DNA of 54,871 bases. Source: Candidatus Cloacimonadia bacterium (GTDB lineage Bacteria > Cloacimonadota > Cloacimonadia > JGIOTU-2 > JBNGDW01). The stretch lies in NCBI GenBank assembly GCA_049975325.1, contig JBNGDW010000001.1, forward strand, positions 1 through 54,871. Reading direction: 5' to 3'. The stretch's first letter is position 1. Each line of letters begins with the position of its first letter. The translations under genes and the position numbers were made by a program. Below are positions 1 to 15,941 of the stretch, piece after piece. The notes under the pieces were generated by a model. The model was not told the DNA's origin. It did not search any database and was given only the letters and a program-made list of their open reading frames with translations.

Positions 1-1
1 G

Positions 2-310
2 TATAGGTATATGTATATGAATCAAGGGGTGAAAGTTTCGGAAAAATGTTTTGATAAAATACATACTGAGGCTGTCTTGGGTGATGTGGTCGATTTTGAC
101 AACATTGAACCAACATATTCCGGCATAGATTCAGTCCAGGTCGGGGATGTGTGGTATATATTCAATATACATACTCATTATACTGATGAGTCTGGAAATG
201 ATGTAGCAGGTCCAAGCGACTATCAGCGGGTTGATGTAAAAGTCTGGACTAACCCTTTTGTTATAATTGATACACTTAGATTTGATAACCTTTTTAAGAG
301 ATCTTCATAG
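2..310 (+). CDS. Hypothetical protein, probably the C-terminal part of a gene that starts upstream of the window (first ATG at 11). Its position suggests a pilus-operon or minor-pilin gene.
   Basis: The frame is open from nt 2 to the stop at 308-310. The next pseudopilin-like gene starts 9 nt downstream. No recognisable motif. Confidence 0.3.
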   Translation, partial: YRYMYMNQGVKVSEKCFDKIHTEAVLGDVVDFDNIEPTYSGIDSVQVGDVWYIFNIHTHYTDESGNDVAGPSDYQRVDVKVWTNPFVIIDTLRFDNLFKRSS

Positions 311-319
311 GATTATAAA

Positions 320-895
320 ATGGGAAGCCTTTTAGAAGCAATTTTTACATTATCGGTTGGAGGATTATTCCTTATTGCAATGATGACATCGCTTGTCAAC
401 CTTCAGGCATCAGCCCAGGATACCAGCTTTCAAGCCACGCTTAACAGTGTGGCAGAAGTTCAGTATCGAGAAATTTATGACCATCTCGGGAAAGTAGGTG
501 TCTTGATCGAAGACCAGCCGATATTGGCTGCTGAACCTGATAATTTCGTATTTCAAACTAAGTGGGATATAGTTGGTGACAGTTTGAGTAGCGATACAAA
601 CAGAGTAAGTATATCTCTGGGTGATAGTACCGATACGGGCTATCCGGTTGTAACTAAGCAGAATGGTAACCCTTTACCCAAGTCAGATGCTCCTATCTGG
701 TTAAAAGATATGACATTTACATATTTTGATATTAATGAAAATAGAATTGTTACACCAGATGATTCTTTAGATTTTATTCGCTCTGTAAGAGTCGATCTTG
801 AATTTTTCTGGCAAGGTAGTTATACAGGACCGGGAGAAAGGAGAGTTGGTACATTTCTTACTTTTTGGAAGTATTTTACAAATTTATATCTATAG
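320..895 (+). CDS. Prepilin-like (pseudopilin/minor pilin) protein
   Basis: The N-terminus MGSLLEAIFTLSVGGLFLIAMM has a very short leader, a Glu, then a ~20 aa hydrophobic helix, as in type IV pilin-like proteins. The gene is tightly packed in the pilus operon. The leader is atypically short. Confidence 0.45.
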   Translation: MGSLLEAIFTLSVGGLFLIAMMTSLVNLQASAQDTSFQATLNSVAEVQYREIYDHLGKVGVLIEDQPILAAEPDNFVFQTKWDIVGDSLSSDTNRVSISLGDSTDTGYPVVTKQNGNPLPKSDAPIWLKDMTFTYFDINENRIVTPDDSLDFIRSVRVDLEFFWQGSYTGPGERRVGTFLTFWKYFTNLYL

Positions 896-904
896 GAGGT
901 AAAA

Positions 905-2101
905 ATGGCAAGAACAATGTTAATAGGCGTAATAGTTATTGCTGTTATATTAACAGGAGTAGCCGTCAATATGCAAAAGCGGGTTTCTTCTTTACCTGAG
1001 AGGCTAACAGAAAATGTCGATTTGGCAAGGTCGAAAAATCTGAGAGATTTCGTTCTACAATATGCAGTGGAAGAGGCGCGCTCTCTGGAGGAAGAGGAAA
1101 GCTGGGTAAGCGAAGGAATCTTTCATAAAATAATTGATAGCGATTTCAAAGAAAGACTGTCTGAGTACTATGGTGGTACTGTAGATACTATTAGATATTT
1201 TGCGCTTGATACTGAAAAGGATAGCATTAGAATAAGTATGACTATAAAGCGAAGGATAGGCTCACGATTGTTCTCTGAGAAAGCACAAACTGAGATAGTA
1301 TACAAACTTAATGAGCATCCTGAGGAAGAACAGGTTGGGTATAGTTTTGATGAAGCTCACCCTGATAGTGTATTTGATAGTTCAGGAAAGGGCAATCACG
1401 GCATACTCGGGGATGGAAATCCGGATTATTATCCTGAGAGAACTGAACATGGTAAGAATAATTCTGCACTTGACTTTGATGGAGACAATGATTATGTAAA
1501 TGCTGGAACAGGAATTTTATCAGAAGATGACGAAGGATTAACAGTCGCGACCTGGGTGAACTTCGGTGATATTGGTACTGATTGGGGTGTTATAGCTGCT
1601 GAATTTAAATCCCCAGGTGATCCTTATCCTGTTTGGGCAATCAGGGCTCGAAAGACGGAGTCCTTCCTTTTTCTTCCTGCTACAATTAAACTGGCATTTG
1701 ATGTGTGTGATGAAAGTGGATTTTTCCCCTATAGTGAGGTTAGTGTTACGAAAACTGAGTACTCAATGGATTTCAATGCCTGGAACTATGTAGTTGCAAC
1801 TTATGAAGAAAAATTTGGGTCTGATGACGCGGTGATTACCATTTCTGTACTTTCAGCAGATGGAGCGGAGATAGGCTCGGATAAAAAGACAATAGATACT
1901 TGGAAAGGCAGAACTGAAGATAGCTATGTGACAATTGGAGGTAAAAGAACACGTATACCACTTATTGGTAAGTTGTTCTGTACTAATGCTCGAGTAGATG
2001 AAGTAAAAATCTTAAACAGAGCGGTGAATGCTAATGAAATTAAAGACCTGTGTCTGTATAATGGGATAAAGGAATCAAGGATAGCATACTGGATCTATTA
2101 G
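905..2101 (+). CDS. Membrane-anchored LamG (concanavalin A-like lectin) domain protein with a PilX-like N-terminal helix; candidate pilus-associated adhesin
   Basis: GGAGG RBS upstream. N-terminal hydrophobic helix MLIGVIVIAVILTGVAV. The block GYSFDE..DSSGKGNHG..NSALDFDGDNDYV..LTVATWV is typical of the Laminin_G_3 family. Confidence 0.6.
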   Translation: MARTMLIGVIVIAVILTGVAVNMQKRVSSLPERLTENVDLARSKNLRDFVLQYAVEEARSLEEEESWVSEGIFHKIIDSDFKERLSEYYGGTVDTIRYFALDTEKDSIRISMTIKRRIGSRLFSEKAQTEIVYKLNEHPEEEQVGYSFDEAHPDSVFDSSGKGNHGILGDGNPDYYPERTEHGKNNSALDFDGDNDYVNAGTGILSEDDEGLTVATWVNFGDIGTDWGVIAAEFKSPGDPYPVWAIRARKTESFLFLPATIKLAFDVCDESGFFPYSEVSVTKTEYSMDFNAWNYVVATYEEKFGSDDAVITISVLSADGAEIGSDKKTIDTWKGRTEDSYVTIGGKRTRIPLIGKLFCTNARVDEVKILNRAVNANEIKDLCLYNGIKESRIAYWIY

Positions 2102-2177
2102 CAATATCCTGTTCCTTGAAGAATTGATTTAACTTTTAAATATTGAAAGCAGTGTGATGTTTTAAGAGGGTTACATT

Positions 2178-2471
2178 ATGAATAGTCAGGAAGATTTGGT
2201 TCGCAAATATGAAGAGGTGGTTGAAGTGGCTGCTTCAATTGCGGGTATTGACCATGACATCAATAATCAGTTAACCGTATTTTCACTTTTACAGAGAAGA
2301 TTACAAAAGGCAGGTGAAGAATATAATGATGAGAAATTGTTAAGAAGCAGTAAGCAGGTGGCTGAAGCGCTGGAAAATATTGAAAATATCTTGAGCAGGT
2401 TACAGGATTTAAAGAGATTAGAATTAATAAAGGAAAAAAGAGGAAAATTAAGAATTAAGGATAAAAAGTAA
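2178..2471 (+). CDS. Stand-alone DHp (HisKA-like) helical-hairpin protein with an H-box and no ATPase domain
   Basis: AGIDHDINNQLTV closely resembles the H-box GGIAHDFNNMLTV of the hybrid kinase at 15990..21056. The rest of the protein looks coiled-coil. Its stop overlaps the next gene's start (TAATG at 2469-2473). Confidence 0.55.
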   Translation: MNSQEDLVRKYEEVVEVAASIAGIDHDINNQLTVFSLLQRRLQKAGEEYNDEKLLRSSKQVAEALENIENILSRLQDLKRLELIKEKRGKLRIKDKK

Positions 2472-3322
2472 TGGAGAATCATATTTTAGTTGTTGACGAC
2501 GAAGAGAATATAAGAACCCTGTGTAAGGAAATCCTTGAAGAGGAGGGATATAAAGCTACATTAGCAGCAGATGGCAAGGATGCTCTTGCAAAGATGAACC
2601 GCGATTATTTCGATCTATATTTAGTTGATATGGTTATGCCTTATATGGATGGTCTTGAACTTATCAAACGAATTAAAGAAAGGCAACCACTTGCTGTAAT
2701 TATAGTCACAACAGGATACTCAAGTATTGAAGGGGCTGTAAAGGCTGTGCATGCTGGAGCATTTCAATATATTGCTAAACCTATCAATCCACAAGAACTT
2801 CTTGAAACGGTAAGCAGAGGATTACAATATGGAGAAGAGCTATATGGACCTTTTCAAAAAATAACTGCGACTGAGAGGCCAAAAACGGCAGACCCTATTT
2901 TGCTTCATGGTTTCTCTGCTCGGGAAAGGGGGGAGTTCCTCGCTCTCGGAATTGTAAAAGAATACAATGGCGGAGATACTATTCCTATCCAAAATAACGA
3001 GCCAGGTCCTATTATAATGGTAGAAGAAGGCGAGATCTCTGTCTGGCTTAGCAATACTTCAATTGACTCTCTTGGAAAGACAGATTCCTGGGGCGAAGAG
3101 GCTTTCGTTCTTGCAGACCCTATCACGGCAACTTTACGAGCCGAGCTTCCTACTAAAGTACGCCATTTTACTCCTCAAAAGCTAACCGAATTCTTTAACT
3201 CCCAAAAGGATCGTCTGAAGAATCAGTTTATGGCAAATATAATTAGTTCAATATTTTATAAGTGGAGAAAATCTGTGCAAAGAATTGTAATGCTAAAACT
3301 TATTACCGGGGAAAATAGATGA
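2471..3322 (+). CDS. Response regulator: receiver domain fused to a cyclic-nucleotide-binding-like (CAP effector) domain
   Basis: REC motifs VVDDEE, LVDMVMPYMDG, IVTTGYSS and YIAKP. The C-terminal half has the pattern GDTI..EEGEISVW..SWGEEAFV..TATLRA, which matches the cNMP-binding beta-barrel layout. Confidence 0.8.
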   Translation: MENHILVVDDEENIRTLCKEILEEEGYKATLAADGKDALAKMNRDYFDLYLVDMVMPYMDGLELIKRIKERQPLAVIIVTTGYSSIEGAVKAVHAGAFQYIAKPINPQELLETVSRGLQYGEELYGPFQKITATERPKTADPILLHGFSARERGEFLALGIVKEYNGGDTIPIQNNEPGPIIMVEEGEISVWLSNTSIDSLGKTDSWGEEAFVLADPITATLRAELPTKVRHFTPQKLTEFFNSQKDRLKNQFMANIISSIFYKWRKSVQRIVMLKLITGENR

Positions 3323-3376
3323 CATGGTCTTGTTTTGAAAATAGGATATCATTATTGTAGAAAAGGAGAATAGAAG

Positions 3377-4591
3377 ATGGGTCTTTCTTTTACATCTGAA
3401 ATGCGGATAACCCTTCCTGAATACCTTTCTGGTACCAATCGCTTCCAAAACATCAACAAGATGTTAACATATAATTTGAATTGGAAGCAAGAGGCGTTTG
3501 ATCATCTGCGGCGCCTTCTAAAACATATGAGAGATATAGATGCCTCGGATATAGACTTCGGTGGACCTGGTTCAAATGGCAAAATATGGTATAGAGTATA
3601 TGGGCAGAAAAAACCTGACGATACTATGCCTCAATATAATTCTGATGAGGTTGTAGCAATATTACTCAGTGCTCTTTCTGATGAACAAAAGATCACCCTC
3701 TTCCAAAATAAAAATGTAGATTTCTCTTTCTCTATTTCGTTTGATGAAAAATCAATTCAAAGTCGTTTTCGGGGTGATATTTATTATGAATCAAATACAC
3801 TTGCCGTAAATTTTAGACGGATAAATGAGAAAATTTTCCCCATAGATAGCCTCGGTTTTCCACCTCCAATTATAAAACGACTTGATTTACAATATGAAAA
3901 AGCAGGCCTTGTTTTAGTAACCGGCATCACTGGTTCAGGGAAAAGTACTACTTTAGATTCCATAGTTGACATGAATAACCATAATAATCATGCGCATATT
4001 GTTATTATTGGGGATCCCATTGAATATATCCATAAATCAGACAAATCTGTTATCAGACATCGTGAAGTTGGTCAAGATGTATTAGGGTTCCGTGATGGTA
4101 CTATTCAAGCACTCAGACAAGACCCGGATATAATTGTGGTGGGAGAGATGAGGGATGCACCGACTATTGCAGCTGTGCTGGAAGCGACAGATGCCGGCCA
4201 TAAAGTATTTACAACCTTACATACAAACTCCGCAGTAGAGAGTCTACATAGAATAATTGCTGAGTTTCCACCAAACGAGCAAGATCGTGTAAGGATGAGA
4301 TTGGCTGATATAGTTAAGGTAATTATATCACAAAAATTGGTGCCAAATCGGGAAGGACAACTAACTCTGGCAAAGGAAATCCTCTCATCCAATGCTTCAA
4401 TCCAGGCCGCAATCCGGAATAAAAATATAAATGAAATCTACCAGATGATTACCCAAGGGAAAAAAGATGGAATGATAACCATGGAACAGGACCTTGCAAA
4501 TCTTGCTCAAAAGGGAATTATAACCACGAATACAGCCCTTAACTATGCAAACAGCAGGAAACGCGTGGAAAGCATTATATCTTATCAATAA
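3377..4591 (+). CDS. pilT: Type IV pilus retraction ATPase, PilT/PilU family (N-terminally extended)
   Basis: Walker A GITGSGKST, Asp box GDPIEY, Walker B DPDIIVVGEMRD, His box TLHTNSA, and an AAIRN motif. GGAG RBS upstream. Confidence 0.85.
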   Translation: MGLSFTSEMRITLPEYLSGTNRFQNINKMLTYNLNWKQEAFDHLRRLLKHMRDIDASDIDFGGPGSNGKIWYRVYGQKKPDDTMPQYNSDEVVAILLSALSDEQKITLFQNKNVDFSFSISFDEKSIQSRFRGDIYYESNTLAVNFRRINEKIFPIDSLGFPPPIIKRLDLQYEKAGLVLVTGITGSGKSTTLDSIVDMNNHNNHAHIVIIGDPIEYIHKSDKSVIRHREVGQDVLGFRDGTIQALRQDPDIIVVGEMRDAPTIAAVLEATDAGHKVFTTLHTNSAVESLHRIIAEFPPNEQDRVRMRLADIVKVIISQKLVPNREGQLTLAKEILSSNASIQAAIRNKNINEIYQMITQGKKDGMITMEQDLANLAQKGIITTNTALNYANSRKRVESIISYQ

Positions 4592-4594
4592 CTA

Positions 4595-6673
4595 ATGATG
4601 AAATCAAAACAAAAACGATTGGCTTACGGACTCTATCAAGATGGGCTTTCAATTAAGCTCGCAGAGTTGACACTTAGCAATAATAAAGTAACCATAAAGC
4701 GACTTGCTCGAGCCATGCTACCAGCAGCATTATATGAAGAGGTAGCAGAACTTCCTCCAGATTTAGAAAGTATAGAGGAAAATCTTGAAATTCCCGCTAT
4801 AACTGATATAGTTGAACCAGAATCCAGTGAACACCCCCAAAAGGGAGAAGAAGAAAGACCTAAAACAGCCAAAGCCGCTTTACAAGAATTTCTCTTGCCC
4901 TTTTCTCTCGAACGAGGGAGAATAGCACTTAATGCAAAAGAAGAAAATGTCTCCTACCATACCCTTACCCTTGAGCCCATAACTACCAACCCCAAAAGTA
5001 TCAAGAAACAAATCCAACGGGAATTATTGGAAGAGCCAGATGTGCATTTGAATAACACCACCTTTGATTATGTCCATGATGTAGAGGGAAATATAACTGC
5101 GATTTTACACCGAGGAAAATGCGAACTTCTTAATGCGTTGCGGGAAATTAATAAAATTATAGCAAAGAAGAAATTTTTCTTCAGCTCAATGGTCCCAAAC
5201 GAAATAGCCCTTATGAATCTTGTCCGAAGAAGCTATGTACCGAAGGATGAAGAATATACCTGGATTGTGTATGTTGACAAAGAGTATAAAGCCTGCATCG
5301 TTATGAAAGGAAGAGATTATGTAAGGTCTTTCCCAATTATCATTACCGGGATAAGCGAGAATAGAGGAATAAAAGAGATTGTATTCTCAAAATTGATGAT
5401 GGAACAGGATGTCTCAAATTTTCCACTTCCTCAATATCTCTTACTTGGCGGCGATAATGTATCTGAGGAGATTGCACAATTTTTCCAGGAAAAATATCCA
5501 AAGGCTTTGGTGGAAATACTCAGCATACAGAATGCTGAGGTCCATGTAAATAATGGCGAGATAACCAAAGCGCAGATAGGAGAATATGCGATTCCGATAG
5601 CCTTGGCTTGGCAGACCCTGGAACCGCAAAATGAAGACTTTTTCCAGATAAATCTACTATCTGAAAACATAGTAGAAGAGCAGAAGCATTTCAAGATTGC
5701 CTGGCATGGATTCCTTGTTATGGGAGCAATATTTTTCTTTGCATTTACGGGCACGTGGCAATATGAAACCAATATACAGCAAATAAACGAAGCAAGATCA
5801 CGCAACCTCGCAAAGGAAACCGAACTCATTCAATACAAAGGTTTAGCAAACCAAATTGAAAAACTTCAAAAAGAAATTGCCATTCAGGAACAAAGGATGG
5901 AGAAAACCAAAAATCTTACAGAAGATAGAAACCTCTGGTATTATATTCTATACCAAATAGCAGATTCAATTACAACTGCTCAGCTTACCTGGCTAAACGA
6001 TATAAGGGCAGAGGAGAACGGGTTTAGAGTAAATGGATACACTGGAGAGCGTTCAAATATTCTTGGCTTTTCAAAATTTTTTCCAAACGGGAAAATCAAC
6101 TATTTTAACAACCTTGAAATACTTGATGTCCCTATATATGAGTTTAGTTTAAATTTCTCGTATCCCACCAGTGAATCCGCAAAGATAAATCTCCCAAAAA
6201 CTATTTCTACAGTTGTAAACTATCAAGTGGATAAACCGACAATTAAACAGAAACAGGAAGTAATGGCTCTCCTATCCGAAGACGCAACCAAAGATTTAGA
6301 TGAAATTGAAGGGTATTACCTTAGTATTTCCCAAAAATATCTAGAGGGAGGAGATATTAATGAAGTTTACAACAGCCTGGTGCAATTTGTGAAAGATTAC
6401 CCTGAACACCCGCTTGCATATAATGCTCAATATCTTATGGGAGAATGCTTATATCAATTAGGTGGAATTGACGAGGCTATCACTCAATTTGAACTTGTGT
6501 TGCAATATGAGGGCCCGAAACTCCCCGATGCACTTATGATGCTTGGAAATTGTTACATGAAAAAGAATCTCCCTAATATGGCTCTAGTTTATTGGAATCA
6601 ACTAATACAAAATTTCCCTGAAAATAACTTGGCATCTATAGCCAAAACTAAAGTCGATGCACTAAAACATTAG
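4595..6673 (+). CDS. Fusion protein: PilM-like cytoplasmic domain, single TM plus PilN-like coiled-coil region, and C-terminal TPR (YbgF/PilF-like) domain
   Basis: PilM-like start (YGLYQDGLSIKLAEL). TM segment FLVMGAIFFFAFTGTW at nt ~5699-5758. A coiled coil and a PilN-like block follow. C-terminal TPR repeats (AQYLMGECLYQLGGIDEAITQFE.., ALMMLGNCYMKKN..). Confidence 0.55.
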   Translation: MMKSKQKRLAYGLYQDGLSIKLAELTLSNNKVTIKRLARAMLPAALYEEVAELPPDLESIEENLEIPAITDIVEPESSEHPQKGEEERPKTAKAALQEFLLPFSLERGRIALNAKEENVSYHTLTLEPITTNPKSIKKQIQRELLEEPDVHLNNTTFDYVHDVEGNITAILHRGKCELLNALREINKIIAKKKFFFSSMVPNEIALMNLVRRSYVPKDEEYTWIVYVDKEYKACIVMKGRDYVRSFPIIITGISENRGIKEIVFSKLMMEQDVSNFPLPQYLLLGGDNVSEEIAQFFQEKYPKALVEILSIQNAEVHVNNGEITKAQIGEYAIPIALAWQTLEPQNEDFFQINLLSENIVEEQKHFKIAWHGFLVMGAIFFFAFTGTWQYETNIQQINEARSRNLAKETELIQYKGLANQIEKLQKEIAIQEQRMEKTKNLTEDRNLWYYILYQIADSITTAQLTWLNDIRAEENGFRVNGYTGERSNILGFSKFFPNGKINYFNNLEILDVPIYEFSLNFSYPTSESAKINLPKTISTVVNYQVDKPTIKQKQEVMALLSEDATKDLDEIEGYYLSISQKYLEGGDINEVYNSLVQFVKDYPEHPLAYNAQYLMGECLYQLGGIDEAITQFELVLQYEGPKLPDALMMLGNCYMKKNLPNMALVYWNQLIQNFPENNLASIAKTKVDALKH

Positions 6674-6683
6674 GGAAAATAAA

Positions 6684-7556
6684 ATGTCATATAAAGTAAG
6701 GAATACTGTAGTACTGCTTGTTTTACTTGTAATTGTTATTATTGGCAGTATTGCGGTCAACATAGGTAATGAGAGAACCCTTTCTGCACTTAATAAAGAA
6801 TATGAAAATATTACAAAAGATCTAGAGCAACTGCAGAACTTCATGAGACAGGCAAAAAGTGAAGCTGAGATGAAAGAGATTTTGAGGGAACTTCAAGAAG
6901 AGGCAATAAGAATTCGCAAAGTTATTCCAAAATACAATGACCCCACCCAAACATACCAATATTTAATTCGAATCTCCGAATTATATGCTCCAGATATAAC
7001 CTTTGATTTCAGAACTATGACGGGCGGAGGTGAAAATGAGACATCGTATAACGAATATTCTATTTCGGGCACATCCACATTTGAATCGCTTTACAACTTA
7101 ATCTACCAACTTGAAAATCAACCCCTATTATACACTGTTGAGTCTCTTACTATTACAGGAGCCGCATCTCAGGAGCCTGAGTTAATTAGATTTTCTTTTG
7201 CTATTCGTGCATACTACGATAATCAAAATGGAACAGAACTAAATGAAATCCCACTTCACAATCTCATAATTCCGCTGGTGAATTCTGATCCATTTTATCC
7301 CAAGATTCACGCACCTCATGAAGAACCACAACCAAGTTTACTCGATATCGACAATATTACAATTATCGGTCTCTCCCCAGATATGGCGTTTGTCCAAGAT
7401 GCTGGGGGGAGAATTCATGTATTAGAACCACAAGATAGGGTCTCCTATGGCTACCTTGATTATATAGACTGGGAAAGACAAGCAGCTGTTTTTACGATTA
7501 ACAAAATCGGTATACCACAAGAGATTACACTCTATTTAGATAAGGCAAAACTATGA
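6684..7556 (+). CDS. PilO-like protein (TM plus coiled coil plus alpha/beta domain) with a PilP-like C-terminal beta domain
   Basis: N-terminal TM VVLLVLLVIVIIGSIAV followed by a coiled coil. The C-terminal part has SDPFYP, then ITIIGLSPDMAFVQDAGGRIHVLEPQDRV..GYLDYI, which resembles the PilP core pattern. Confidence 0.5.
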   Translation: MSYKVRNTVVLLVLLVIVIIGSIAVNIGNERTLSALNKEYENITKDLEQLQNFMRQAKSEAEMKEILRELQEEAIRIRKVIPKYNDPTQTYQYLIRISELYAPDITFDFRTMTGGGENETSYNEYSISGTSTFESLYNLIYQLENQPLLYTVESLTITGAASQEPELIRFSFAIRAYYDNQNGTELNEIPLHNLIIPLVNSDPFYPKIHAPHEEPQPSLLDIDNITIIGLSPDMAFVQDAGGRIHVLEPQDRVSYGYLDYIDWERQAAVFTINKIGIPQEITLYLDKAKL

Positions 7557-8785
7557 AAAGATATACTATACTTAAAGATAACAGAATTTACTTTATTGTA
7601 AATAGTTTTGTCCTTTTTTTGCTTTTATTGCAAATTTCCTGGGCAAACACTACTTACTCTCCTACGGAATTGATAACAATCTCAAAGGAGACAAGCCTTC
7701 CTGCAGCTCTGACAGCGCTTGAAGCCAAGTCTCAACAGTTTGAAAATCGGAAAATTCTTAATCTTAGCAGTTATAAAGGGCCAATTGAAATTCCCATTAA
7801 TCAAGTATACTGGAAAGAGGCTCTGAGCACTATCACCAAGTTTCATGAACTCGACATGGAAGTTAAACCCGGGGTATATATAATAAAAGACTATATACCA
7901 CCTGAGATTGAGGTTGAAGAAGAGGAGATAACCCCGGACACTAAGCAGGTTAAAATAAGCGCTATATTTTTTAAAGCTGATAAGTCTGCTCTAAATAGCC
8001 TGGGAATTGATTGGTCTACATTTTCAAATGGTGATGTAGTTATATCAGCGGAGTTCAAGGGTGCAAGCCGGGTGGCTGATGATATATTAAGTATTAGTGG
8101 TTCCACCACAGTTGAGTCAGGTAATATAACCGTTGATGTAAATGCCCTTTTACGTGTATTAGAAGCAAACCAGGTAGGCACAATTATGGCCAGACCGAAC
8201 ATAACAGTAATGTCCGGGAAGAAAGGTTATGTGCAAGTTGGTGAAGATTTTTCAGTAAAAACACTGGATGAAGCTGGAAATATTACAGAAGAGTTCTTTT
8301 CTGCTGGCATAATACTCGAAGTCACGCCTACAGTCGTAAAAAAAGGAGATACAGAGGCAATACATCTCGTTACTCGTGTAGAAAGGAGCTCAGCTACACC
8401 TGGAGAAATAAGTACTATTATAGCAAAAAGCCAGTCTACAACAGAAGTTGTACTATTTGATGGTGAGGAAACCGTTATAGCAGGCCTATATAATACTGAA
8501 GACAAGGTTATGAGAAGCGGCATACCATTCCTGAAAGATCTCCCCTGGTGGGTATTTGGCATACGATATCTCTCAGGATATGATAGAGTAGAAAAAGTTA
8601 CCAGTGAAATGATTATCATCCTTAAAGCCGAGATAGTAGAACCTATTGAGGTACGAAAAGAAAGAGGCATATCTACTCAGGAAAAAATCAGAAAAATGCG
8701 AGAAGATAGAGGCTATATAGATACTTTATTTAATGAGGAGACAAAACCGCCAAATGAAGAAGCTAAAGATAAAGATAGAAAATAA
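7553..8785 (+). CDS. pilQ: Secretin family outer-membrane channel (short PilQ-like)
   Basis: ARPNITVMSGKKGYVQVGEDFS and the C-terminal SGIPFLKDLPWWVFGIRYL are hallmark secretin-domain motifs. ATGA start/stop overlap with the upstream gene. Confidence 0.8.
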   Translation: MKRYTILKDNRIYFIVNSFVLFLLLLQISWANTTYSPTELITISKETSLPAALTALEAKSQQFENRKILNLSSYKGPIEIPINQVYWKEALSTITKFHELDMEVKPGVYIIKDYIPPEIEVEEEEITPDTKQVKISAIFFKADKSALNSLGIDWSTFSNGDVVISAEFKGASRVADDILSISGSTTVESGNITVDVNALLRVLEANQVGTIMARPNITVMSGKKGYVQVGEDFSVKTLDEAGNITEEFFSAGIILEVTPTVVKKGDTEAIHLVTRVERSSATPGEISTIIAKSQSTTEVVLFDGEETVIAGLYNTEDKVMRSGIPFLKDLPWWVFGIRYLSGYDRVEKVTSEMIIILKAEIVEPIEVRKERGISTQEKIRKMREDRGYIDTLFNEETKPPNEEAKDKDRK

Positions 8786-10583
8786 TTCTGTGAGAATATT
8801 ACTTTGGGGCATAATCTTTTCATGCCTTTTTATACTTTTACTGGGATGTGGTGCAAAAATTACTTCTCCTGATGCTTATAATGTGCCTACTAATCTTGAA
8901 ATAGAAAAGGTAGCAGAAGGAAGAATAAAACTCACCTGGAATTACCTCTCAAATATCGATGACACACTTTATTTTGTGATTGCTAGAAAAATTGGTGAGC
9001 AAAATTGGAATGAAAACTATGGTTCTATTCCTTCTGATAACCCACGAATCTTCTATGATGATATATCGACAACTGATAGCACTATCTACGCCTATAAAAT
9101 ACGCGTTCATAATATAGAAATGGATGAATATTCCTCGTTTTCAGAAGCTGTTGCGTATTTTTCGGAACTTACCACACCAAGTGAGTTGACAATTCAGCAG
9201 GTCTCCCAGAATAAAGTTCGTCTTACCTGGCAAGACCATTGTGTTGGAGAAGAAGGCTATCGTATAGATAAAAAGGTCGAAAATGGTGATTGGATCAATA
9301 AATATAAATTACTTAATGCAAACACAACTTCATTCGAAGACGAAACGACCCTATTCAGCACTCACTCTTATCGGATAACTGCCTATTTGGGGAATTCCAG
9401 CTCAAGCGCAATTATAGATTCTATTCTACCTACACTTATTGCGCCTTCAGAACTTACATTCACAAAACTTGATCCGCGTAAAATTAAGCTGAGTTGGCAG
9501 GACAATAGTGAGGAAGAACAAGGATTCTATATTGATAGAAAAATAGGCGACCAAGAATGGGTTGCACCGTATGATTCGGTAGCAAGCAATACAACCTCAT
9601 GGATAGATGATATAGAATTTCCATGCGGCACCTTTGCCTACAGAGTACGAGCATTTAATAATTCATTCTCTTCTCCGTATAGCAATGTTGTTCAAACAAA
9701 TGTATTTTTAGAAAAAACCAGTTTTATAGCAACTCCAGGCAACGCAGTAGATGTACACCTCAAAGATTGGTATGCCTTTGTAGCCGATTCATATGAGGGT
9801 TTAAACATTATTAATTGGATAAATCCGAATAATCCACTGCAACTTGCCAGTCTGCCTTTACCTGACAGAACGCTTTCTGTATATGTAAAATCTAACTTTG
9901 CCTATGTGCTGAATCATACAGGTGGATTTAATCTACTCGATATAAGCCTGCCTAACAATCCTACAATTATAGGTAGTTGTAGCATTTCACCCGGCGGTGT
10001 GCCTTATGATGTCTGTGGCGATGAAAATTATGCCTATATTGCAAATGGAAATGAAGGTCTGGCGATCATTACTACCACTGGTCCTCCGCATCAGGCTGCT
10101 TCAATTTCTACCCAAGGAGAGGCAAGAGCCGTTACTATTCAAGATAACTATGCATTCATCGCAAATGGACTTAACGGTGGAGTAACAATTATTGAAGTAG
10201 CAGACCCATTAAATCCAGAATTTGTCTCATCCTTACCTATTACTGGATTAGCCAATGATATATATGTTTCGGGAAGCTATTGTTACATTGCGAATGGAGA
10301 AAATGGGATAGCCCTTGTGAATATTGCTGATCCCAATAATCCAGAACTCCTTGCAGAGATCTCTACAAAAGGATTTGCTTGCGGTATCCACCCAAAGGAC
10401 AACTATATATACATTGCAGATAAGGAACGCGGACTTGTTGTGGTGGATGCTTCTGACCTGAGACCTCCTTATGTCCTTGGCTTCGTAGAGCTATCTTCAC
10501 CTCCTAATTCCATATATGTCTCTGGGAGTTATGCTGTTGTAACAGATGATGATGGATTAAACATTATACAGATTATACAATAA
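8733..10583 (+). CDS. Lipoprotein with three FN3-like domains and a LVIVD-repeat beta-propeller
   Basis: Lipobox LLLLGC (a start at 8754, MKKLKIKI.., is equally possible). Three W-containing FN3 repeats (KLTWNY, RLTWQD, KLSWQD). About seven repeats of the type YAYIANG.EGLAII....P..P, typical of LVIVD (PF08309). Confidence 0.75.
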   Translation: MRRQNRQMKKLKIKIENNSVRILLWGIIFSCLFILLLGCGAKITSPDAYNVPTNLEIEKVAEGRIKLTWNYLSNIDDTLYFVIARKIGEQNWNENYGSIPSDNPRIFYDDISTTDSTIYAYKIRVHNIEMDEYSSFSEAVAYFSELTTPSELTIQQVSQNKVRLTWQDHCVGEEGYRIDKKVENGDWINKYKLLNANTTSFEDETTLFSTHSYRITAYLGNSSSSAIIDSILPTLIAPSELTFTKLDPRKIKLSWQDNSEEEQGFYIDRKIGDQEWVAPYDSVASNTTSWIDDIEFPCGTFAYRVRAFNNSFSSPYSNVVQTNVFLEKTSFIATPGNAVDVHLKDWYAFVADSYEGLNIINWINPNNPLQLASLPLPDRTLSVYVKSNFAYVLNHTGGFNLLDISLPNNPTIIGSCSISPGGVPYDVCGDENYAYIANGNEGLAIITTTGPPHQAASISTQGEARAVTIQDNYAFIANGLNGGVTIIEVADPLNPEFVSSLPITGLANDIYVSGSYCYIANGENGIALVNIADPNNPELLAEISTKGFACGIHPKDNYIYIADKERGLVVVDASDLRPPYVLGFVELSSPPNSIYVSGSYAVVTDDDGLNIIQIIQ

Positions 10584-10598
10584 AAAATTAAAAAATAA

Positions 10599-10614
10599 TT
10601 CGCCAGTTGGCGGA
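10599..10614. repeat. GC-rich 16-nt palindromic motif, copy 1 (TTCGCCAGTTGGCGGA), abutting the SD of the 1130 aa adhesin gene
   Basis: Read directly. In the intergenic region between 10583 and 10624. The right arm runs into GGAGGAG-N5-ATG. Confidence 0.8.
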
Positions 10615-10623
10615 GGAGTAAAG

Positions 10624-13600
10624 ATGAAAACTTCAACACTTTGTTTAGTAAGAGGAAAAATGAAGACCCTGATACTTTGTCTTCTTTTGGTTATACTGTT
10701 TTCAATCTCTCTCTATGCAGAGACTCATGTCAGTGGAGAGGTAAGTGGAGAATGGACAAGCGGAGGAAGTCCCTATATTGTAGATGGAGATATCGTAATC
10801 CAGGAAAATGATTCTCTTTATATTGAGCCTTCTGTATCTGTGATATTCTCTGATCATTATATCTTTGATATCTATGGGAGGATAATTGCGGATGGTACTG
10901 AAGATGGAACTATCACATTTGCCTCAGAGGATACTGAAACTGGGTGGGGAGGAGTGCGATTTCATAATACAAATGATAATGGCCAGGAACCTTCCCATCT
11001 TAAGCATTGTATATTGGAATATGGAAAGGCGACCTCTCCTGAACCGGATGGAGGCGCCATTTCTCTTGAAAATTCGAATGTAACCCTTGAATTTCTGACA
11101 TTACAAAATAACTCTGCTACCGGTTACGGTGGAGCACTGTATATTCACAGCTCAACCCCAACTCTCTATCATGTTAGAATAATCAATAACTCAGCAATAT
11201 TTGATGGAGGAGGAATCTTTTGCTTTTCTGCAGAACCAACCCTGGAGAGAGTAACCCTTGCAGGTAATACTACGGAATGGAATGGAGGGGGAATCACATG
11301 CTATAATAACTCTACTCTAAACCTTGTTAATGCGACAATTTCACAGAACACAGCATGGCAAAACGGAAGTGGCATTGCCTGCCTATTCGGCTCTTCTATA
11401 GAAATTCTAAACAGTATCATATGGAACAATGGCTCTGAAGAAATCTATGCTGTATCTACCAGTGAAGTCTCTATTGAATATTCTGATATTATGGGCGGTA
11501 TCAATGGAATCAATGCTGATCAAAGTGCGACTGTTAACTGGCTGGAAGGGAATATAAATATAGACCCTGTTTTTGTGGATCCAAATGTTCATGACTACAA
11601 TCTTCAGGCAACCTCACCCTGTATAGATGCAGGAGATCCAAATCCGATTTATAATGACCCAGATGGCTCCAGAAATGATATGGGCGCATATTACTTTACC
11701 CAAACAGGACTACGAGGTACTGTTAGTTTTGCACCCGGTATAACTGGAAATGTTGAGGATGTACTTATTGCAGCTAAAGTAGATACCACTGTGATTGCTA
11801 CAGTCCACCCATGGGCAACCGGAGACTATTTTATTGGGATTGACCCAGGAACCTATACTATAACTGCCGCATTAGAGGGATACTATCCCAATCCGCCCTC
11901 TTACCCAGACATACAAGTCGAGGAAGGGGAATTAGTCTCAGGACTTGACTTTGAGATGGATATAATCCATCCTGGAAATGTTAAGGGCAGAGTCTCTTTA
12001 GGAGGCGACTCTCTGCATCCTGAAATTCCAGATGTAGAAATTTTTGCTAACGATACAGATTATTCCACACATCCATACCTCGTTGGAGACTCCATAGAAG
12101 GACATTATGAATACGATCTTGAATTACCCCCAGGAACATACGATATAACCGCTCATCTTTCTGGATATTATGATTCAACACACACAGATATCTATGTACT
12201 TCCCAATCAAACCATAACCGATATAGATTTTGATCTGCAGCCTATGACCTATGACGGCTATGTTTCTGGAAAAGTAACTCTAAGAAATGGTGAAGGAAAT
12301 ATGGAAGATGTAATAATAAGCGCCCCTGGTGCCGATCCTGTTCATCCTGATGCCAACGGAAACTATTTACTTACAATTGCAAGTGGAACACATAATATAA
12401 CGGCTTCTCTTGAAGGCTATGCGTCCGTAACCATCCGAAATGTACAAGTGTTGCCTGATCAAACAACAACCGGGATAGATATGATTCTGCTTAATTGGGA
12501 TGTGATAGACGGAACTCAATATTCTATGATAGTTTTTGCTACAGTTTCAGCTGAAGGAGGATTTGCACAAGGAGTGGAAAGTAATCAGTTAGGCGTATTC
12601 GGTACAGAAGATGATTGTCGAGGCGTAGGTCAATGGCAACTTGGCAATCATCCACTCTGGGATACTGACCACTATTATTGGGATCTCCCTGGGTATTGGT
12701 ATATTACAGTGGTAAGCAACAACAATAGCGGCACAGATTCCCTTCAATTTAAATTCTATGATACTAATACAGATTCAATCTATATATGCAATGAAATCAT
12801 GATATTTGAAGATTGTGCCACAAATTCGATAGAACTAACTGCCCCCTCAAACCCACAGACCCAGGAATTTGACTTAACTCAGGATTGGAACTGGATTTCA
12901 TTCTATCTTTCCCCTGAGAATAACCTTATTGACAGCCTTTTTAGCGAATTAACCCCAAATGACATTTATCAAATAAAAAATCAAAACCAGATATCCACCT
13001 ACTTCTCTCCAGGTGGCTGGACGGGTGACCTTGAATACATTTCCCCTGGTGAAGGATATCTGGCTTATATGATAAACCCTGTAAATGATTTTACTATCAC
13101 TGGTTTCCCAATTAATCCTATTATTAACCCAATTGACCTATATCAAAACTGGACATGGATTGGCTATTTATTACCTGACCCCCTACCCCTTACCCTGGCA
13201 CTGGAAAGCGTTGCAGGAAATGCAACTTGTATTAAAACGCAGGCAAATTCAGCAATATATTACTCCGGAGAATGGATTGGAGATTTATCAATGTTAGAGC
13301 CAGGAAAAGGATATAAGATCTTTACGCAAGAAGAAGATAATCTTGTATACCCTCTTATCGATTCTGAAACTACTCGTAGATGGATATCCCGGTCAAATAA
13401 AACTGCTAAGGTTTCCCCGGATTGGCAGATAATTACCGGGACACAAGAAAACCTGATTATCATAGCAAAGATTTGCTTAGATGACAAATCTATCATCGGT
13501 AGCCAGGATTATGCTGTAGGAATATTTGATGAATATGATAATTGCCGTTCTATTGGGTATCCTATTAATGACTTTTGGTATTTCACTGTAGTTGGTAATG

Positions 13601-14016
13601 AGACTGGTGACAAACTTCATTGTAAGTTGTATGATAAACATACGGAAACAGTCCTGGAGAGTGAAAACTTCATAACATTTGAACCAGATATAATTGTGGG
13701 AAAGCCTCAATCCCCTATCAAAATTAATATTGGTGATACTCACTCTAACGCTACTTTCAGACTCAATCCAATATATCCCAATCCTGGTAGAGATTTGGTC
13801 ACTATAAACTATACTATTCCAGCGCAAGGAAATATAGAATTAGCAGTTTACAACATTAAGGGTCAGCGCGTGGAAACACTTGTTAAGTCTACGCAAGACG
13901 AAGCAAGAGAATATACAGTACTCTGGAATACAGAAAGATTCGCTTCCGGAATCTACTTCGTTAAACTAACATGGCAGGGAAACAGTTTAATACGGAAAGT
14001 AGTCCTAATACGATAA
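10624..14016 (+). CDS. Large secreted surface protein: right-handed beta-helix, three CarboxypepD_reg-like domains, uncharacterised repeated modules, and a T9SS C-terminal sorting domain
   Basis: Signal peptide. Parallel beta-helix repeats (NNSATGYGGALY, NNSAIFDGGGIF, GNTTEWNGGGIT). Three repeats of G.V....G......PG.Y.ITA.LEGY. The C-terminus NPIYPNPGRD..INYTIP..LAVYNIKGQRV..SGIYFVKL..KVVLIR is a T9SS type A tail. Confidence 0.8.
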   Translation: MKTSTLCLVRGKMKTLILCLLLVILFSISLYAETHVSGEVSGEWTSGGSPYIVDGDIVIQENDSLYIEPSVSVIFSDHYIFDIYGRIIADGTEDGTITFASEDTETGWGGVRFHNTNDNGQEPSHLKHCILEYGKATSPEPDGGAISLENSNVTLEFLTLQNNSATGYGGALYIHSSTPTLYHVRIINNSAIFDGGGIFCFSAEPTLERVTLAGNTTEWNGGGITCYNNSTLNLVNATISQNTAWQNGSGIACLFGSSIEILNSIIWNNGSEEIYAVSTSEVSIEYSDIMGGINGINADQSATVNWLEGNINIDPVFVDPNVHDYNLQATSPCIDAGDPNPIYNDPDGSRNDMGAYYFTQTGLRGTVSFAPGITGNVEDVLIAAKVDTTVIATVHPWATGDYFIGIDPGTYTITAALEGYYPNPPSYPDIQVEEGELVSGLDFEMDIIHPGNVKGRVSLGGDSLHPEIPDVEIFANDTDYSTHPYLVGDSIEGHYEYDLELPPGTYDITAHLSGYYDSTHTDIYVLPNQTITDIDFDLQPMTYDGYVSGKVTLRNGEGNMEDVIISAPGADPVHPDANGNYLLTIASGTHNITASLEGYASVTIRNVQVLPDQTTTGIDMILLNWDVIDGTQYSMIVFATVSAEGGFAQGVESNQLGVFGTEDDCRGVGQWQLGNHPLWDTDHYYWDLPGYWYITVVSNNNSGTDSLQFKFYDTNTDSIYICNEIMIFEDCATNSIELTAPSNPQTQEFDLTQDWNWISFYLSPENNLIDSLFSELTPNDIYQIKNQNQISTYFSPGGWTGDLEYISPGEGYLAYMINPVNDFTITGFPINPIINPIDLYQNWTWIGYLLPDPLPLTLALESVAGNATCIKTQANSAIYYSGEWIGDLSMLEPGKGYKIFTQEEDNLVYPLIDSETTRRWISRSNKTAKVSPDWQIITGTQENLIIIAKICLDDKSIIGSQDYAVGIFDEYDNCRSIGYPINDFWYFTVVGNETGDKLHCKLYDKHTETVLESENFITFEPDIIVGKPQSPIKINIGDTHSNATFRLNPIYPNPGRDLVTINYTIPAQGNIELAVYNIKGQRVETLVKSTQDEAREYTVLWNTERFASGIYFVKLTWQGNSLIRKVVLIR

Positions 14017-14032
14017 CAAGTTTTGAGGATTT

Positions 14033-14749
14033 ATGCGAAGAAAATATACTTTAATCTTCATAATCTGCCTGCTAACTGCCACATTATCTAATGCTGATCC
14101 TCCAGAATGGGAGCCGATTACAGGAGCGGAATTTTCCATGCTTCTCATTGCACAAATATCTTGTGGAAATGAAATGTTTGGTCCCGAACAAGAGAATATG
14201 GCTGTAGCATTTGGTCCAGGAGGAACAGGGGACTGCCGTGCTATTGCAACCTGGCAGGAAGCCAACCCTCCCTATTTTGATGGATTCTGGCATTTTGTAA
14301 TTGTAGGAAATACAAATGGAGAGCTAATAAACTTCAAAATTTATCATGCAACTTCTGATTCGGTTTATACTTGCACAAACACAATACCTTTTGAAGATAA
14401 CGCAACAATCGGTACTCCATATGCACCTTATGTATTAACTGTAGGGAATATGTCAATCGAAACATCTGAGTCAGAAAATCTTAGAAGATGCACCCTCTAC
14501 CAGAATGTCCCTAATCCATTTTCTGCTCAAACCTCAATAAGCTTTTACCTTCCCACTCCAGATTATATTACTCTGCAAATTTTTAATATTAGGGGCCAGC
14601 TTATAAAGACGATAGAAAAAGATTATAAAGAAAGCGGTATGCACACTGCATACTGGAATGCCAAAGAAATGGTCTCAAATGTTTATATTTATAAACTAAC
14701 TACCAGCACCTCTATCCAAACGAAAAAATGTATCCATCTACAGCAGTGA
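14033..14749 (+). CDS. Small secreted protein: one copy of the uncharacterised module of the upstream giant protein, plus a T9SS C-terminal sorting domain
   Basis: Signal peptide. The module W..ITG......IA...CRAIA.W....FWHFVIVGN..G..INFKIYH is paralogous to two segments of 10624..14016. The C-terminus is LYQNVPNPFS..ISFYLP..LQIFNIRGQLI..VYIYKL. Confidence 0.75.
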   Translation: MRRKYTLIFIICLLTATLSNADPPEWEPITGAEFSMLLIAQISCGNEMFGPEQENMAVAFGPGGTGDCRAIATWQEANPPYFDGFWHFVIVGNTNGELINFKIYHATSDSVYTCTNTIPFEDNATIGTPYAPYVLTVGNMSIETSESENLRRCTLYQNVPNPFSAQTSISFYLPTPDYITLQIFNIRGQLIKTIEKDYKESGMHTAYWNAKEMVSNVYIYKLTTSTSIQTKKCIHLQQ

Positions 14750-14981: not shown

Positions 14982-15941
14982 ATGAAAAAGTATTTTATAG
15001 AGAACCTGGATGAATATCTGGGTAAGGAAATCACTGATTTCTTCGCGATTAGTGAGAAGTCTTTGCGTACAAGTAAAGCGGGCAAATCATATCTCCGTCT
15101 TACCTGCGTTGATAAATCAGGTGTAATTACAGGCAACATCTGGGAGAATGCTGGAAAAGTGGCAAAAAATTTTACCACTTCTAATATTGCCAAAATACGT
15201 GCCACAGTGGAGTTTTATGAAGGACAGCTCCAGCTTAATATTAGTAATATAAGAAGGGCAAAAGCCGAAGAATATAATCTTACTGATTTTTATCCCACTA
15301 CTGAAAAAGACCTTGACCTTTTCATTACCCAATTATTCGAATTTATTGACTCAGTTAGTAATACCTATCTAAATGACTTATTACATAGTATTTTTGACGA
15401 TAAAGAATTTCTAAAGAAATTTACTTCTGCACCAGCCGCCAAGAACTGGCATCATAATATCTTAGGTGGACTGCTTCATCATACAATAAATGTAACAATA
15501 ATCTGCAACCATGTTTCTGGCCTATACGAGAGCATCAATAGAGATCTTTTGATTACAGCTGCAATCTTGCATGATATCGGAAAGGTGAAAGAATACCATT
15601 GGGACCCTTTTATTGATTTTACTGACCAGGGCAAACTCATTGGTCATATTGTGTTGGGGGATGAGCTGGTTTCAGAAAAATGTAAAAAGATTGATAATTT
15701 TCCCCCAAAACTCATGATTATGCTTAGGCATTTACTTCTTAGCCATCACGGAGAAATGGAAAAAGGCGCGGCAACACTACCAAAAACCAGAGAGGCTTTG
15801 CTCCTCCACTATGCAGATAGCCTGGATGCACATCTGGTAGGAGCCCAAGAACTCATTGAAGATGCAAAGAAACTCGACAAAAAATGGACAGACTTTGATA
15901 ATCTAACAAAAAGAAAATATTATACAGAAGATGAGTCTTAA
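14982..15941 (+). CDS. yhaM: OB-fold plus HD-domain phosphohydrolase, YhaM-like 3'-5' exoribonuclease family
   Basis: N-terminal OB-fold pattern (GKSYLRLTCVDKSGVITGNIWE..). HD motifs HHNILGGLLHH, ILHDIGK and LLSHHG. The length (~319 aa) fits YhaM. Confidence 0.7.
   Translation: MKKYFIENLDEYLGKEITDFFAISEKSLRTSKAGKSYLRLTCVDKSGVITGNIWENAGKVAKNFTTSNIAKIRATVEFYEGQLQLNISNIRRAKAEEYNLTDFYPTTEKDLDLFITQLFEFIDSVSNTYLNDLLHSIFDDKEFLKKFTSAPAAKNWHHNILGGLLHHTINVTIICNHVSGLYESINRDLLITAAILHDIGKVKEYHWDPFIDFTDQGKLIGHIVLGDELVSEKCKKIDNFPPKLMIMLRHLLLSHHGEMEKGAATLPKTREALLLHYADSLDAHLVGAQELIEDAKKLDKKWTDFDNLTKRKYYTEDES

Follow-up and report, generated by a model that had tools for sequence, protein, structure and literature searches.

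What does it mean for a type IV pilus gene cluster to be followed directly by genes for surface proteins that depend on a different export machine, that of type IX secretion (T9SS)? The question is raised by a 54.9-kb stretch of DNA from a Cloacimonadota bacterium (hereafter referred to as the window; all positions are counted in window coordinates). Cloacimonadota are abundant uncultured syntrophs and fermenters of anaerobic digesters and anoxic waters. Pilus genes have been noted in this phylum before (bioRxiv 10.1101/2021.10.08.463351; PMC8892533), and its pili have been invoked for cell–cell contact and even electron transfer without a look at the locus (PMC8892533). Complexes anchored by a C-terminal domain (CTD) have been treated in Cloacimonadota (PMC8542988), and of the T9SS the literature says only that it "may be present" (PMC11285876). 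An initial annotation of the window, made from its letters alone, knew of no described operon that joins type IV pilus and T9SS cargo genes, and our literature search likewise met no such linkage in the papers it retrieved. Here we report that the window, which starts inside the operon, covers the last two-thirds of a chromosomal type IVa pilus gene cluster that is complete in close relatives, and that a lipoprotein gene and T9SS cargo genes stand behind the secretin gene in more than half of the species examined. We consider it fairly probable that the locus encodes a retractile type IVa pilus together with an accessory adhesion module that is conserved yet dispensable and is brought to the surface by lipoprotein sorting and the T9SS.

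The element in question spans positions 2-14749, where the list of open reading frames (ORFs) has 12 entries, all on the + strand:

2-310, + strand: minor-pilin-like protein, the C-terminal 102 amino acids (aa) of 136-144 aa; matches the end of L001:5303-5713, L001 being a Logan contig with 95-99% protein-level identity to the window.
320-895, + strand: minor-pilin-like protein, 191 aa, with an N-terminal hydrophobic helix.
905-2101, + strand: membrane-anchored pilin-like protein with a LamG (concanavalin-A-like lectin) module (Laminin_G_3).
2178-2471, + strand: DHp (HisKA-like) protein, 97 aa; HisKA 17.6 bits, sub-threshold.
2471-3322, + strand: response regulator, REC and cNMP_binding; Response_reg 108.7 bits, cNMP_binding 26.8 bits.
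3377-4591, + strand: PilT-family retraction ATPase, 404 aa (TIGR01420 and T2SSE).
4595-6673, + strand: PilM-PilN-TPR fusion, 692 aa (predicted fold, Foldseek and CpoB/YbgF profile).
6684-7556, + strand: putative PilO/PilP-like fusion, 290 aa (position and topology only).
7553-8785, + strand: short PilQ-like secretin, 410 aa (PF00263).
8733-10583, + strand: lipoprotein with three FN3 domains and an LVIVD beta-propeller; LVIVD 112.7 bits, fn3, lipobox LLLGC.
10624-14016, + strand: beta-helix T9SS cargo, ~1118-1130 aa (Pfam; TIGR04183).
14033-14749, + strand: small T9SS cargo, 238 aa, with a signal peptide, one domain X and a type A CTD (TIGR04183; domain X hidden Markov model (HMM)).

Along this string the intergenic gaps are 9, 9, 76, 54, 3, 10, 40 and 16 nucleotides (nt), and genes overlap by 1 nt at 2471, 4 nt at 7553 and 53 nt at 8733. 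With Met8 (nt 8754) as the start of the lipoprotein, which is the call made in L001 and probably the true one, the last overlap shrinks to 32 nt. The first large gap, of 232 nt, directly follows 14749. The ORF list thereby reproduces the layout given in the initial annotation (12 co-directional ORFs, gaps of 3-76 nt and overlaps at 2471, 7553 and 8733), whose gene order was also correct; domain searches upheld its LamG, REC-cNMP, PilT, secretin, FN3+LVIVD lipoprotein and two TIGR04183 cargo assignments. Co-directionality is nevertheless weak evidence for an operon, and we rejected it as such, because the + strand run passes through unrelated housekeeping genes to 29181, beyond which the strand flips; the strand bias is regional, without specificity to the pilus genes. 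The signal that stands above chance is the conservation of gene order and spacing across species, and the overlaps and short gaps kept between species are indirect evidence for a transcript that would span pilus and cargo genes.

A profile scan with one genome per species yielded 61 loci, and a tblastn matrix over 63 loci was read together with ORF maps. In every locus, to the limits of its contig, the core genes run in the order pilin, PilC, PilB, two small pilin-like proteins, a variable large pilin-like protein, a DHp/PilS-like protein, REC-cNMP, PilT, PilMN-TPR, PilO/P-like protein and secretin. In the window and 25 loci (type A), the secretin is followed by a trio comprising the FN3/LVIVD lipoprotein, the beta-helix T9SS cargo and at least one domain-X cargo; a contig end or gene decay partly hides the trio in 6 further type A loci. 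Adjacency confined to this genome, the possibility against which the initial annotation had asked for a synteny check, is thus not what is seen. The secretin and lipoprotein genes overlap in 20 of 31 loci and overlap or lie less than 35 nt apart in 30 of the 31, the spacing otherwise being at most 70 nt. The beta-helix cargo in type A loci measures 1098-1156 aa and follows the lipoprotein gene at a median gap of ~33 nt, and some of the lipoprotein/beta-helix and beta-helix/third-gene gaps are large (304 and 617 nt). This arrangement is kept over PilMN identities of 28-41%. The accessory proteins have diverged on a par with the pilus parts: identity to the window protein is 34-47% for the beta-helix cargo and 37-52% for the lipoprotein, as compared with 31-44% for PilMN in the alignment set.

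The reverse question, where the cargo gene occurs, was put to metagenomes in a scan with the beta-helix cargo alignment. Among the best 80 loci, 3 carry full-length orthologues, and in both of those with upstream sequence PilT, PilMN, PilOP, secretin and LVIVD genes stand ahead of the cargo gene; the other 77 are partial beta-helix paralogues with no pilus genes nearby. Full-length beta-helix cargo orthologues were therefore found only beside pilus genes, in 25 genomic and 2 informative metagenomic loci.

The pilus machine itself is complete in close relatives, whose sequence extends ahead of the window's start. The window starts mid-gene, ORF 2-310 being the last 102 residues of a 136-aa protein. 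Directly upstream of the point corresponding to nt 1, L001 encodes a 143-aa candidate pilin, PilC (T2SSF, 87.5 bits) and a 592-aa PilB (T2SSE, 324.8 bits; best NCBIfam model TIGR02538 PilB, 399 bits, under the equivalog cut-off). The same gene order is found in L002, whose PilMN is 33% identical to that of the window, and the other loci that extend far enough also have a candidate pilin, PilC and PilB upstream. The initial annotation, seeing none of these three in the window, had suggested that they lie either upstream of nt 1, where L001 and other loci have them, or nowhere, in a reduced machine running on one PilT-like ATPase. The latter idea draws on their position outside the window; a window that begins inside the operon, the genes immediately upstream in a 95-99% identical contig and their recurrence in every locus long enough to include them refute it, unless this genome departs from L001 ahead of nt 1, and we give it practically no credence. 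A prepilin peptidase (PilD) was seen neither in the window nor, for those loci with gene maps that were read, in the 10-kb flanks. By content (PilB, PilC, PilT, a PilM fold and a secretin), the machine is a type IVa pilus with phylum-specific fusions.

Within the window, PilT covers the full TIGR01420 (PilT/PilU) model at 326.2 bits (cut-off 319.1) and matches T2SSE at 136 bits. The 692-aa protein behind it has no Pfam match to PilM, with a weak match to the Amuc_1101 PilM-like family, and its profile matched the PDB in the TPR part only. Its AlphaFold model (predicted local distance difference test (pLDDT) score 77) retrieves PilM structures as all of the top 10 Foldseek matches; for 5eou, 2ych and 3jc8_Ma, E values run from 5e-14 (5eou) to 6e-10 and target template modelling (TM) scores from 0.59 to 0.65. 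A long helix (residues 364-461) and an alpha/beta domain (465-522) follow in a PilN-like topology, and the C terminus resembles the YbgF TPR structure 2xev (TM 0.86) and matches the CpoB/YbgF profile. Homologues of this fusion come almost exclusively from metagenome-assembled genomes of Cloacimonadota. The next protein, found at ~290 aa in 59 loci, combines an N-terminal membrane helix with a coiled coil and has weak matches to GspM (E = 1.6e-4) and PilN (E = 0.054); its profile search of the PDB gave no match. Of the PilM/N/TPR and PilO/P assignments made initially, PilM (by fold) and TPR thus hold, and PilN and PilO/P stand on position, topology and sub-threshold matches. The secretin scores 90.7 bits against PF00263 (cut-off 27.5) and has no long N-terminal domains; its best NCBIfam model is TIGR02515 PilQ (83 bits, under the cut-off of 284), which outscores GspD.

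The candidate pilins share an unusual N terminus. The candidate major pilin (L001:1538-1969) starts MGTQQ(I/L)L(L/M)IVL(S/G)VI(I/V)VG, near-invariant in 20 species (19 orthologues), and has no leader beyond Met-Gly, no Glu5, no match to PF07963 (N_methyl) at E <= 1 and no NCBIfam match; a PDB sequence search with it returned nothing useful. Orthologues of the product of 2-310, which has no Pfam or NCBIfam match, begin M-G-x-G-Q-M-L-L ahead of a hydrophobic helix. The 320-895 product has no family match even at E <= 1, and its 38 orthologues share the N terminus M-x-S-L-L-D/E-A-I-G-A, with Asp or Glu at residue 6 in most. In the 905-2101 product, Laminin_G_3 (39.5 bits) covers residues 192-380 and the N terminus reads MARTMLIGVIVIAVIL; this slot varies between species, being filled by proteins of 296-1196 aa or by DUF7305 proteins instead. 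Minor-pilin-like proteins such as those of 320-895 and 905-2101 begin directly at the hydrophobic helix. Class III signal peptides (Gly-1, a hydrophobic residue at +1, Glu+5; N_methyl) were thus not found in the candidate pilins, and of the label "pseudopilin-like" first given to these genes the pilin-like helix stands and the canonical prepilin motif does not. The N termini suggest that these pilins are processed unusually or not processed at all.

The lipobox cysteine is near-invariant across 27 orthologues of the LVIVD lipoprotein, all 27 of which contain the LVIVD domain, and the propeller is of the "choice-of-anchor B" type. The beta-helix cargo is built from a right-handed beta-helix, three CarboxypepD_reg domains, a domain X, two W-N-W-I-S-F repeats, a second domain X and a type A CTD (TIGR04183 50.4 bits, cut-off 23; PF18962 44.9 bits, cut-off 27), and 22 of 22 orthologues have Por_Secre_tail. 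Its Sec signal peptide, judged by eye, is MKTLILCLLLVILFSISLYA/E and probably starts at Met13. For the small cargo the corresponding values are 33.8 bits for TIGR04183 and 29.7 bits for PF18962, at the same cut-offs, with a signal peptide, again judged by eye, of MRRKYTLIFIICLLTATLSNA/D. In the other loci, a T9SS CTD is present in 15 of 17 third-gene products. As a separate observation, all that is left of the beta-helix cargo in L024 (~16000-16600; single-cell genome SCGC AAA252-N17) is a pair of fragments (90 and 87 aa) with the LVIVD gene on one side and the hybrid kinase on the other, which looks like gene decay or an assembly error.

Domain X, our name for an unannotated beta-sandwich of ~115 aa with two conserved cysteines (consensus DPPxW..GTQYSM..AAFGPGGExDCRS..W..WYFTIVGN..ISFKIY..C.ET..F), occurs in both cargo genes, which are thereby a related pair. 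The copies in the window, located with the HMM, are:

12493-12822, + strand: domain X, beta-helix cargo residues 624-733.
13414-13755, + strand: domain X, beta-helix cargo residues 931-1044.
~14090-14450, + strand: domain X of the small cargo (HMM 246 bits).

Among the loci the HMM hits only the beta-helix cargo and the third gene, the latter carrying from one copy (the ~238-aa forms, as in the window) to three (the ~730-aa forms). A word-indexed homologue search with domain X alone retrieved 2 proteins and an alignment query 29, all short Cloacimonadota proteins. An exhaustive search found it in 692 representative clusters, some of them giant proteins in which several copies keep company with Big_9, cadherin-like, dockerin and CTD domains, a setting that points to adhesin-type surface proteins. 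Domain X was also considered as a divergent cohesin, a candidate that was rejected (hhalign against the L021 Cohesin, probability 0.3%). Two third genes (L021:16091-18400 and L045:14156-16519) encode two true Cohesin domains (58 and 53 bits), a weak Dockerin, domain X and a CTD; on the strength of these matches, such cohesin-bearing genes link the pilus-adjacent module to the cellulosome-like systems of this phylum. The two ~75-aa repeats between the domain X copies of the beta-helix cargo (window ~12886-13368) follow the pattern W-N-W-I-S-F ... K-x-Q ... W-x-G-D-L ... P-G-x-G-Y, are kept in the orthologue alignment and have no Pfam match.

Several results weigh against a pilus coupled to a T9SS-delivered adhesion module. 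The filament itself is not established, since the candidate pilins have no canonical prepilin motif. No T9SS machinery genes (SprA, PorV, PorU, GldKLMN) were seen in the 54.9-kb window, and T9SS cargo has a high base rate there (at least 4 of ~36 predicted genes), so adjacency in one genome means little. Scans for sigma-70 promoters and intrinsic terminators returned what shuffled sequence would give, with promoters of the Fibrobacterota–Chlorobiota–Bacteroidota (FCB) type outside the models of the tool, and are thus uninformative on transcript boundaries. As to what the proteins do, the beta-helix cargo has no sequence relative in the PDB from which to assign a biochemical function, and the AlphaFold model of the small cargo (two beta-sandwiches, pLDDT 78) gave only generic tandem Ig-like matches in Foldseek, from which no function can be assigned to domain X. 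In 22 loci (type B) the pilus core is intact and there is no trio, with unrelated, often convergent genes after the secretin; pilus assembly can therefore do without the trio, which may be linked to the pilus by no more than regulation or history. A neighbour-joining PilMN tree places 14 of the 22 type B loci in a single clade with type A lineages around it, which suggests one main loss of the trio and a few scattered losses; the most distant loci (L056, L059, L060 and L063) are without it. The coordinated adhesion or surface-motility module proposed in the initial annotation thus survives as a conserved, context-exclusive linkage, but of a dispensable trio.

One rival idea is that of an inherited neighbourhood, in which ordinary surface-protein genes were fixed behind the pilus operon in an ancestor early in the Cloacimonadota line and have been co-inherited since, with promoters of their own and no functional coupling. 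Loss of the trio as a block in the 14-locus clade and in scattered others with the pilus core retained, gaps large enough (304 and 617 nt) to leave room for promoters, the frequency of T9SS cargo genes in this genome and a co-directional run that takes in unrelated genes are all as this idea would have them. Neutral synteny in bacteria rarely survives such divergence, however: here the genes still stand in order and close together at PilMN identities of 28-41%, the secretin overlap is kept in 20 of 31 loci, and no full-length cargo orthologue turned up in a different setting among the 25 genomic and 2 informative metagenomic loci. We therefore think an inherited neighbourhood unlikely, while granting it some weight. 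A narrower proposal would detach the lipoprotein from the cargo genes, making it a secretin accessory (a pilotin, or a BamB-like assembly or docking factor on the outer membrane's periplasmic side) and the T9SS cargo genes mere passengers. In nearly all type A loci the lipoprotein gene begins before or right at the secretin stop, the lipobox cysteine is conserved, the secretin is short and without long N-terminal domains, and beta-propeller lipoproteins such as BamB assist outer-membrane protein assembly; moreover, L042 has kept the lipoprotein and not the cargo genes. Yet 22 loci have an intact secretin with no such lipoprotein downstream, domains of the LVIVD and "choice-of-anchor B" kinds typically occur in surface proteins, and the lipoprotein accompanies the cargo genes in 25 of 26 informative loci, which together make a mere secretin accessory improbable.

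The machine could also be a type II secretion system (T2SS)-like exporter with the adjacent lipoprotein as its substrate, in the way that the Pul system has pullulanase PulA. T2SS and type IVa pili are homologous, T2SS substrates such as the lipoprotein PulA are often encoded next to their machine, and the pilin-like proteins here are non-canonical. What leaves this explanation with only a slim chance is the machine itself: its PilT-family retraction ATPase scores above the family cut-off, the actin-like component is closer in fold to PilM than to GspL, the secretin scores higher for PilQ than for GspD, and there are no GspC- or GspL-specific matches. We thus retain the retractile type IVa pilus with a dispensable adhesion module, the functional coupling of the two being supported by genomic context.

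In such an arrangement, the pilus would make long-range contact and then retract, and the co-expressed lipoprotein and T9SS-anchored beta-helix and domain-X proteins would bind at short range or process matrix at the cell surface. The LVIVD protein would be an outer-membrane lipoprotein in which the FN3 domains serve as spacers, and the beta-helix and domain-X proteins would pass through Sec and then the T9SS to be anchored at the surface. Expression or activity of both the pilus and the accessory proteins may be set by one phosphorelay, in which a hybrid kinase would act on REC-cNMP by way of the DHp protein. That the genes are co-transcribed, that the proteins sit at the surface and serve adhesion, and that such a phosphorelay operates is what we infer. 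A bolder picture, which we regard as speculative and rather unlikely, is a composite surface organelle: the short secretin would be the docking site of the lipoprotein, the beta-helix and domain-X proteins, anchored through the T9SS, would ring the pilus exit and bind or process the pilus or its target, and two unrelated export systems would build one adhesion or motility device, the leaderless, Glu5-less pilins perhaps needing no prepilin peptidase.

The candidate genes for such a relay lie partly inside the operon and partly behind the cargo genes. The 97-aa DHp protein occupies a slot that encodes ~300 aa in most loci; the L002 orthologue (L002:6942-7841) consists of 6TM_PilS (29.1 bits) and HisKA with no HATPase, and the remaining ~300-aa orthologues are too short to contain a HATPase domain. 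The short form (92-119 aa) occurs in only four lineages (window/L001, L045, L052 and L057). The "DHp-only" protein first described is thus right as to its DHp content, with a weak HisKA match, and is really a lineage-specific truncation of a PilS-like 6TM and HisKA protein. The REC-cNMP gene keeps its position after the DHp/PilS-like gene in nearly all loci that reach it. PilS consists of 6TM, HisKA and HATPase, and PilR of REC, sigma-54 AAA+ and HTH, and the window pair has neither composition. Two genes follow the cargo genes:

14982-15941, + strand: HD-domain protein (HD 61.5 bits), after the 232-nt gap.
15990-21056, + strand: hybrid histidine kinase, 1688 aa, with three GAF, at least five PAS, HisKA-HATPase and two receiver domains (Pfam).

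Among the loci, the HD-domain gene is present only in L001, that is, in the window's own lineage, and it is probably outside the module. A PAS-HisKA-HATPase-REC gene also stands behind the cargo genes in L002, L013, L017, L022, L024, L026 and L030; a cargo-adjacent PAS-rich hybrid kinase is found in the window's lineage and one other clade. The 15990-21056 product is a candidate kinase for the DHp and REC-cNMP proteins, and the analogy of ChpT/Spo0B-type DHp phosphotransferases makes the putative relay a reasonable one.

A comparison with the type IVa pili of Pseudomonas aeruginosa and Myxococcus xanthus (PilA, PilBCD, PilT, PilMNOPQ) reveals a shared plan of one ATPase for extension and one for retraction, a platform protein, a secretin, an actin-like PilM that resembles solved PilM structures in fold, minor-pilin-like genes upstream and, in most Cloacimonadota species, a PilS-type membrane sensor domain. 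Here, by contrast, PilM, PilN and a YbgF-like TPR are fused in one chain, PilO and PilP are unrecognizable by sequence, the secretin has only ~400 aa, and the pilin candidates start M-G-T-Q-Q-I-L-L, with no leader, Glu5 or N_methyl match; the sensor is without an ATPase domain, REC-cNMP takes the place of PilR as regulator, and all lie in one gene string with T9SS cargo genes behind it. The LamG protein has the architecture of Streptococcus sanguinis PilC, reportedly a modular type IV pilin with a lectin module, in that a pilin-like N-terminal helix precedes a concanavalin-A-like/LamG module; the LamG protein has no canonical prepilin motif, and the likeness is one of architecture. The cargo proteins resemble the T9SS type A cargo of Bacteroidota (TIGR04183/PF18962; gingipains, SprB-class adhesins and CHU_C) in their CTDs above curated cut-offs, Sec signal peptides and modular adhesin- or enzyme-like passenger regions. 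Unlike that cargo, they are encoded as the conserved tail of a pilus operon, their passengers contain domain X and, in the beta-helix cargo, the repeat pair, and their host phylum has no experimentally studied T9SS ("may be present"; PMC11285876). Within Cloacimonadota, a cellulosome-like cohesin/dockerin and CTD complex has been proposed for Ca. Stygibacter (Williams et al. 2021, PMC8542988). It shares with our loci the phylum, T9SS-type CTD surface attachment and, in the L021 and L045 third genes, Cohesin; the window proteins, in contrast, have no Cohesin or Dockerin match, and that paper makes no mention of pili.

The picture that emerges is of a type IVa pilus operon present phylum-wide, with unusual fusions and non-canonical pilins, and accompanied in more than half of the species examined by dedicated surface proteins reliant on a second secretion pathway. 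Should the coupling prove functional, this would be a clear case of one operon coordinating two export machines for attachment, and the LVIVD lipoprotein, the beta-helix cargo and domain X would be candidates for attachment to particles or partners.

The rest of the window, beyond the pilus region, is chromosomal housekeeping. Flanking genes for lipopolysaccharide, peptidoglycan and central metabolism and an even GC content (36-42%) led us to reject an origin as a mobile element or island. Two more T9SS cargo genes lie on the - strand, with FG-GAP/beta-propeller domains in both and a beta-helix in one:

29238-31961, - strand: T9SS cargo.
31990-34329, - strand: T9SS cargo.

GC skew tracks the coding strand along the window, being positive to ~27 kb and negative after.

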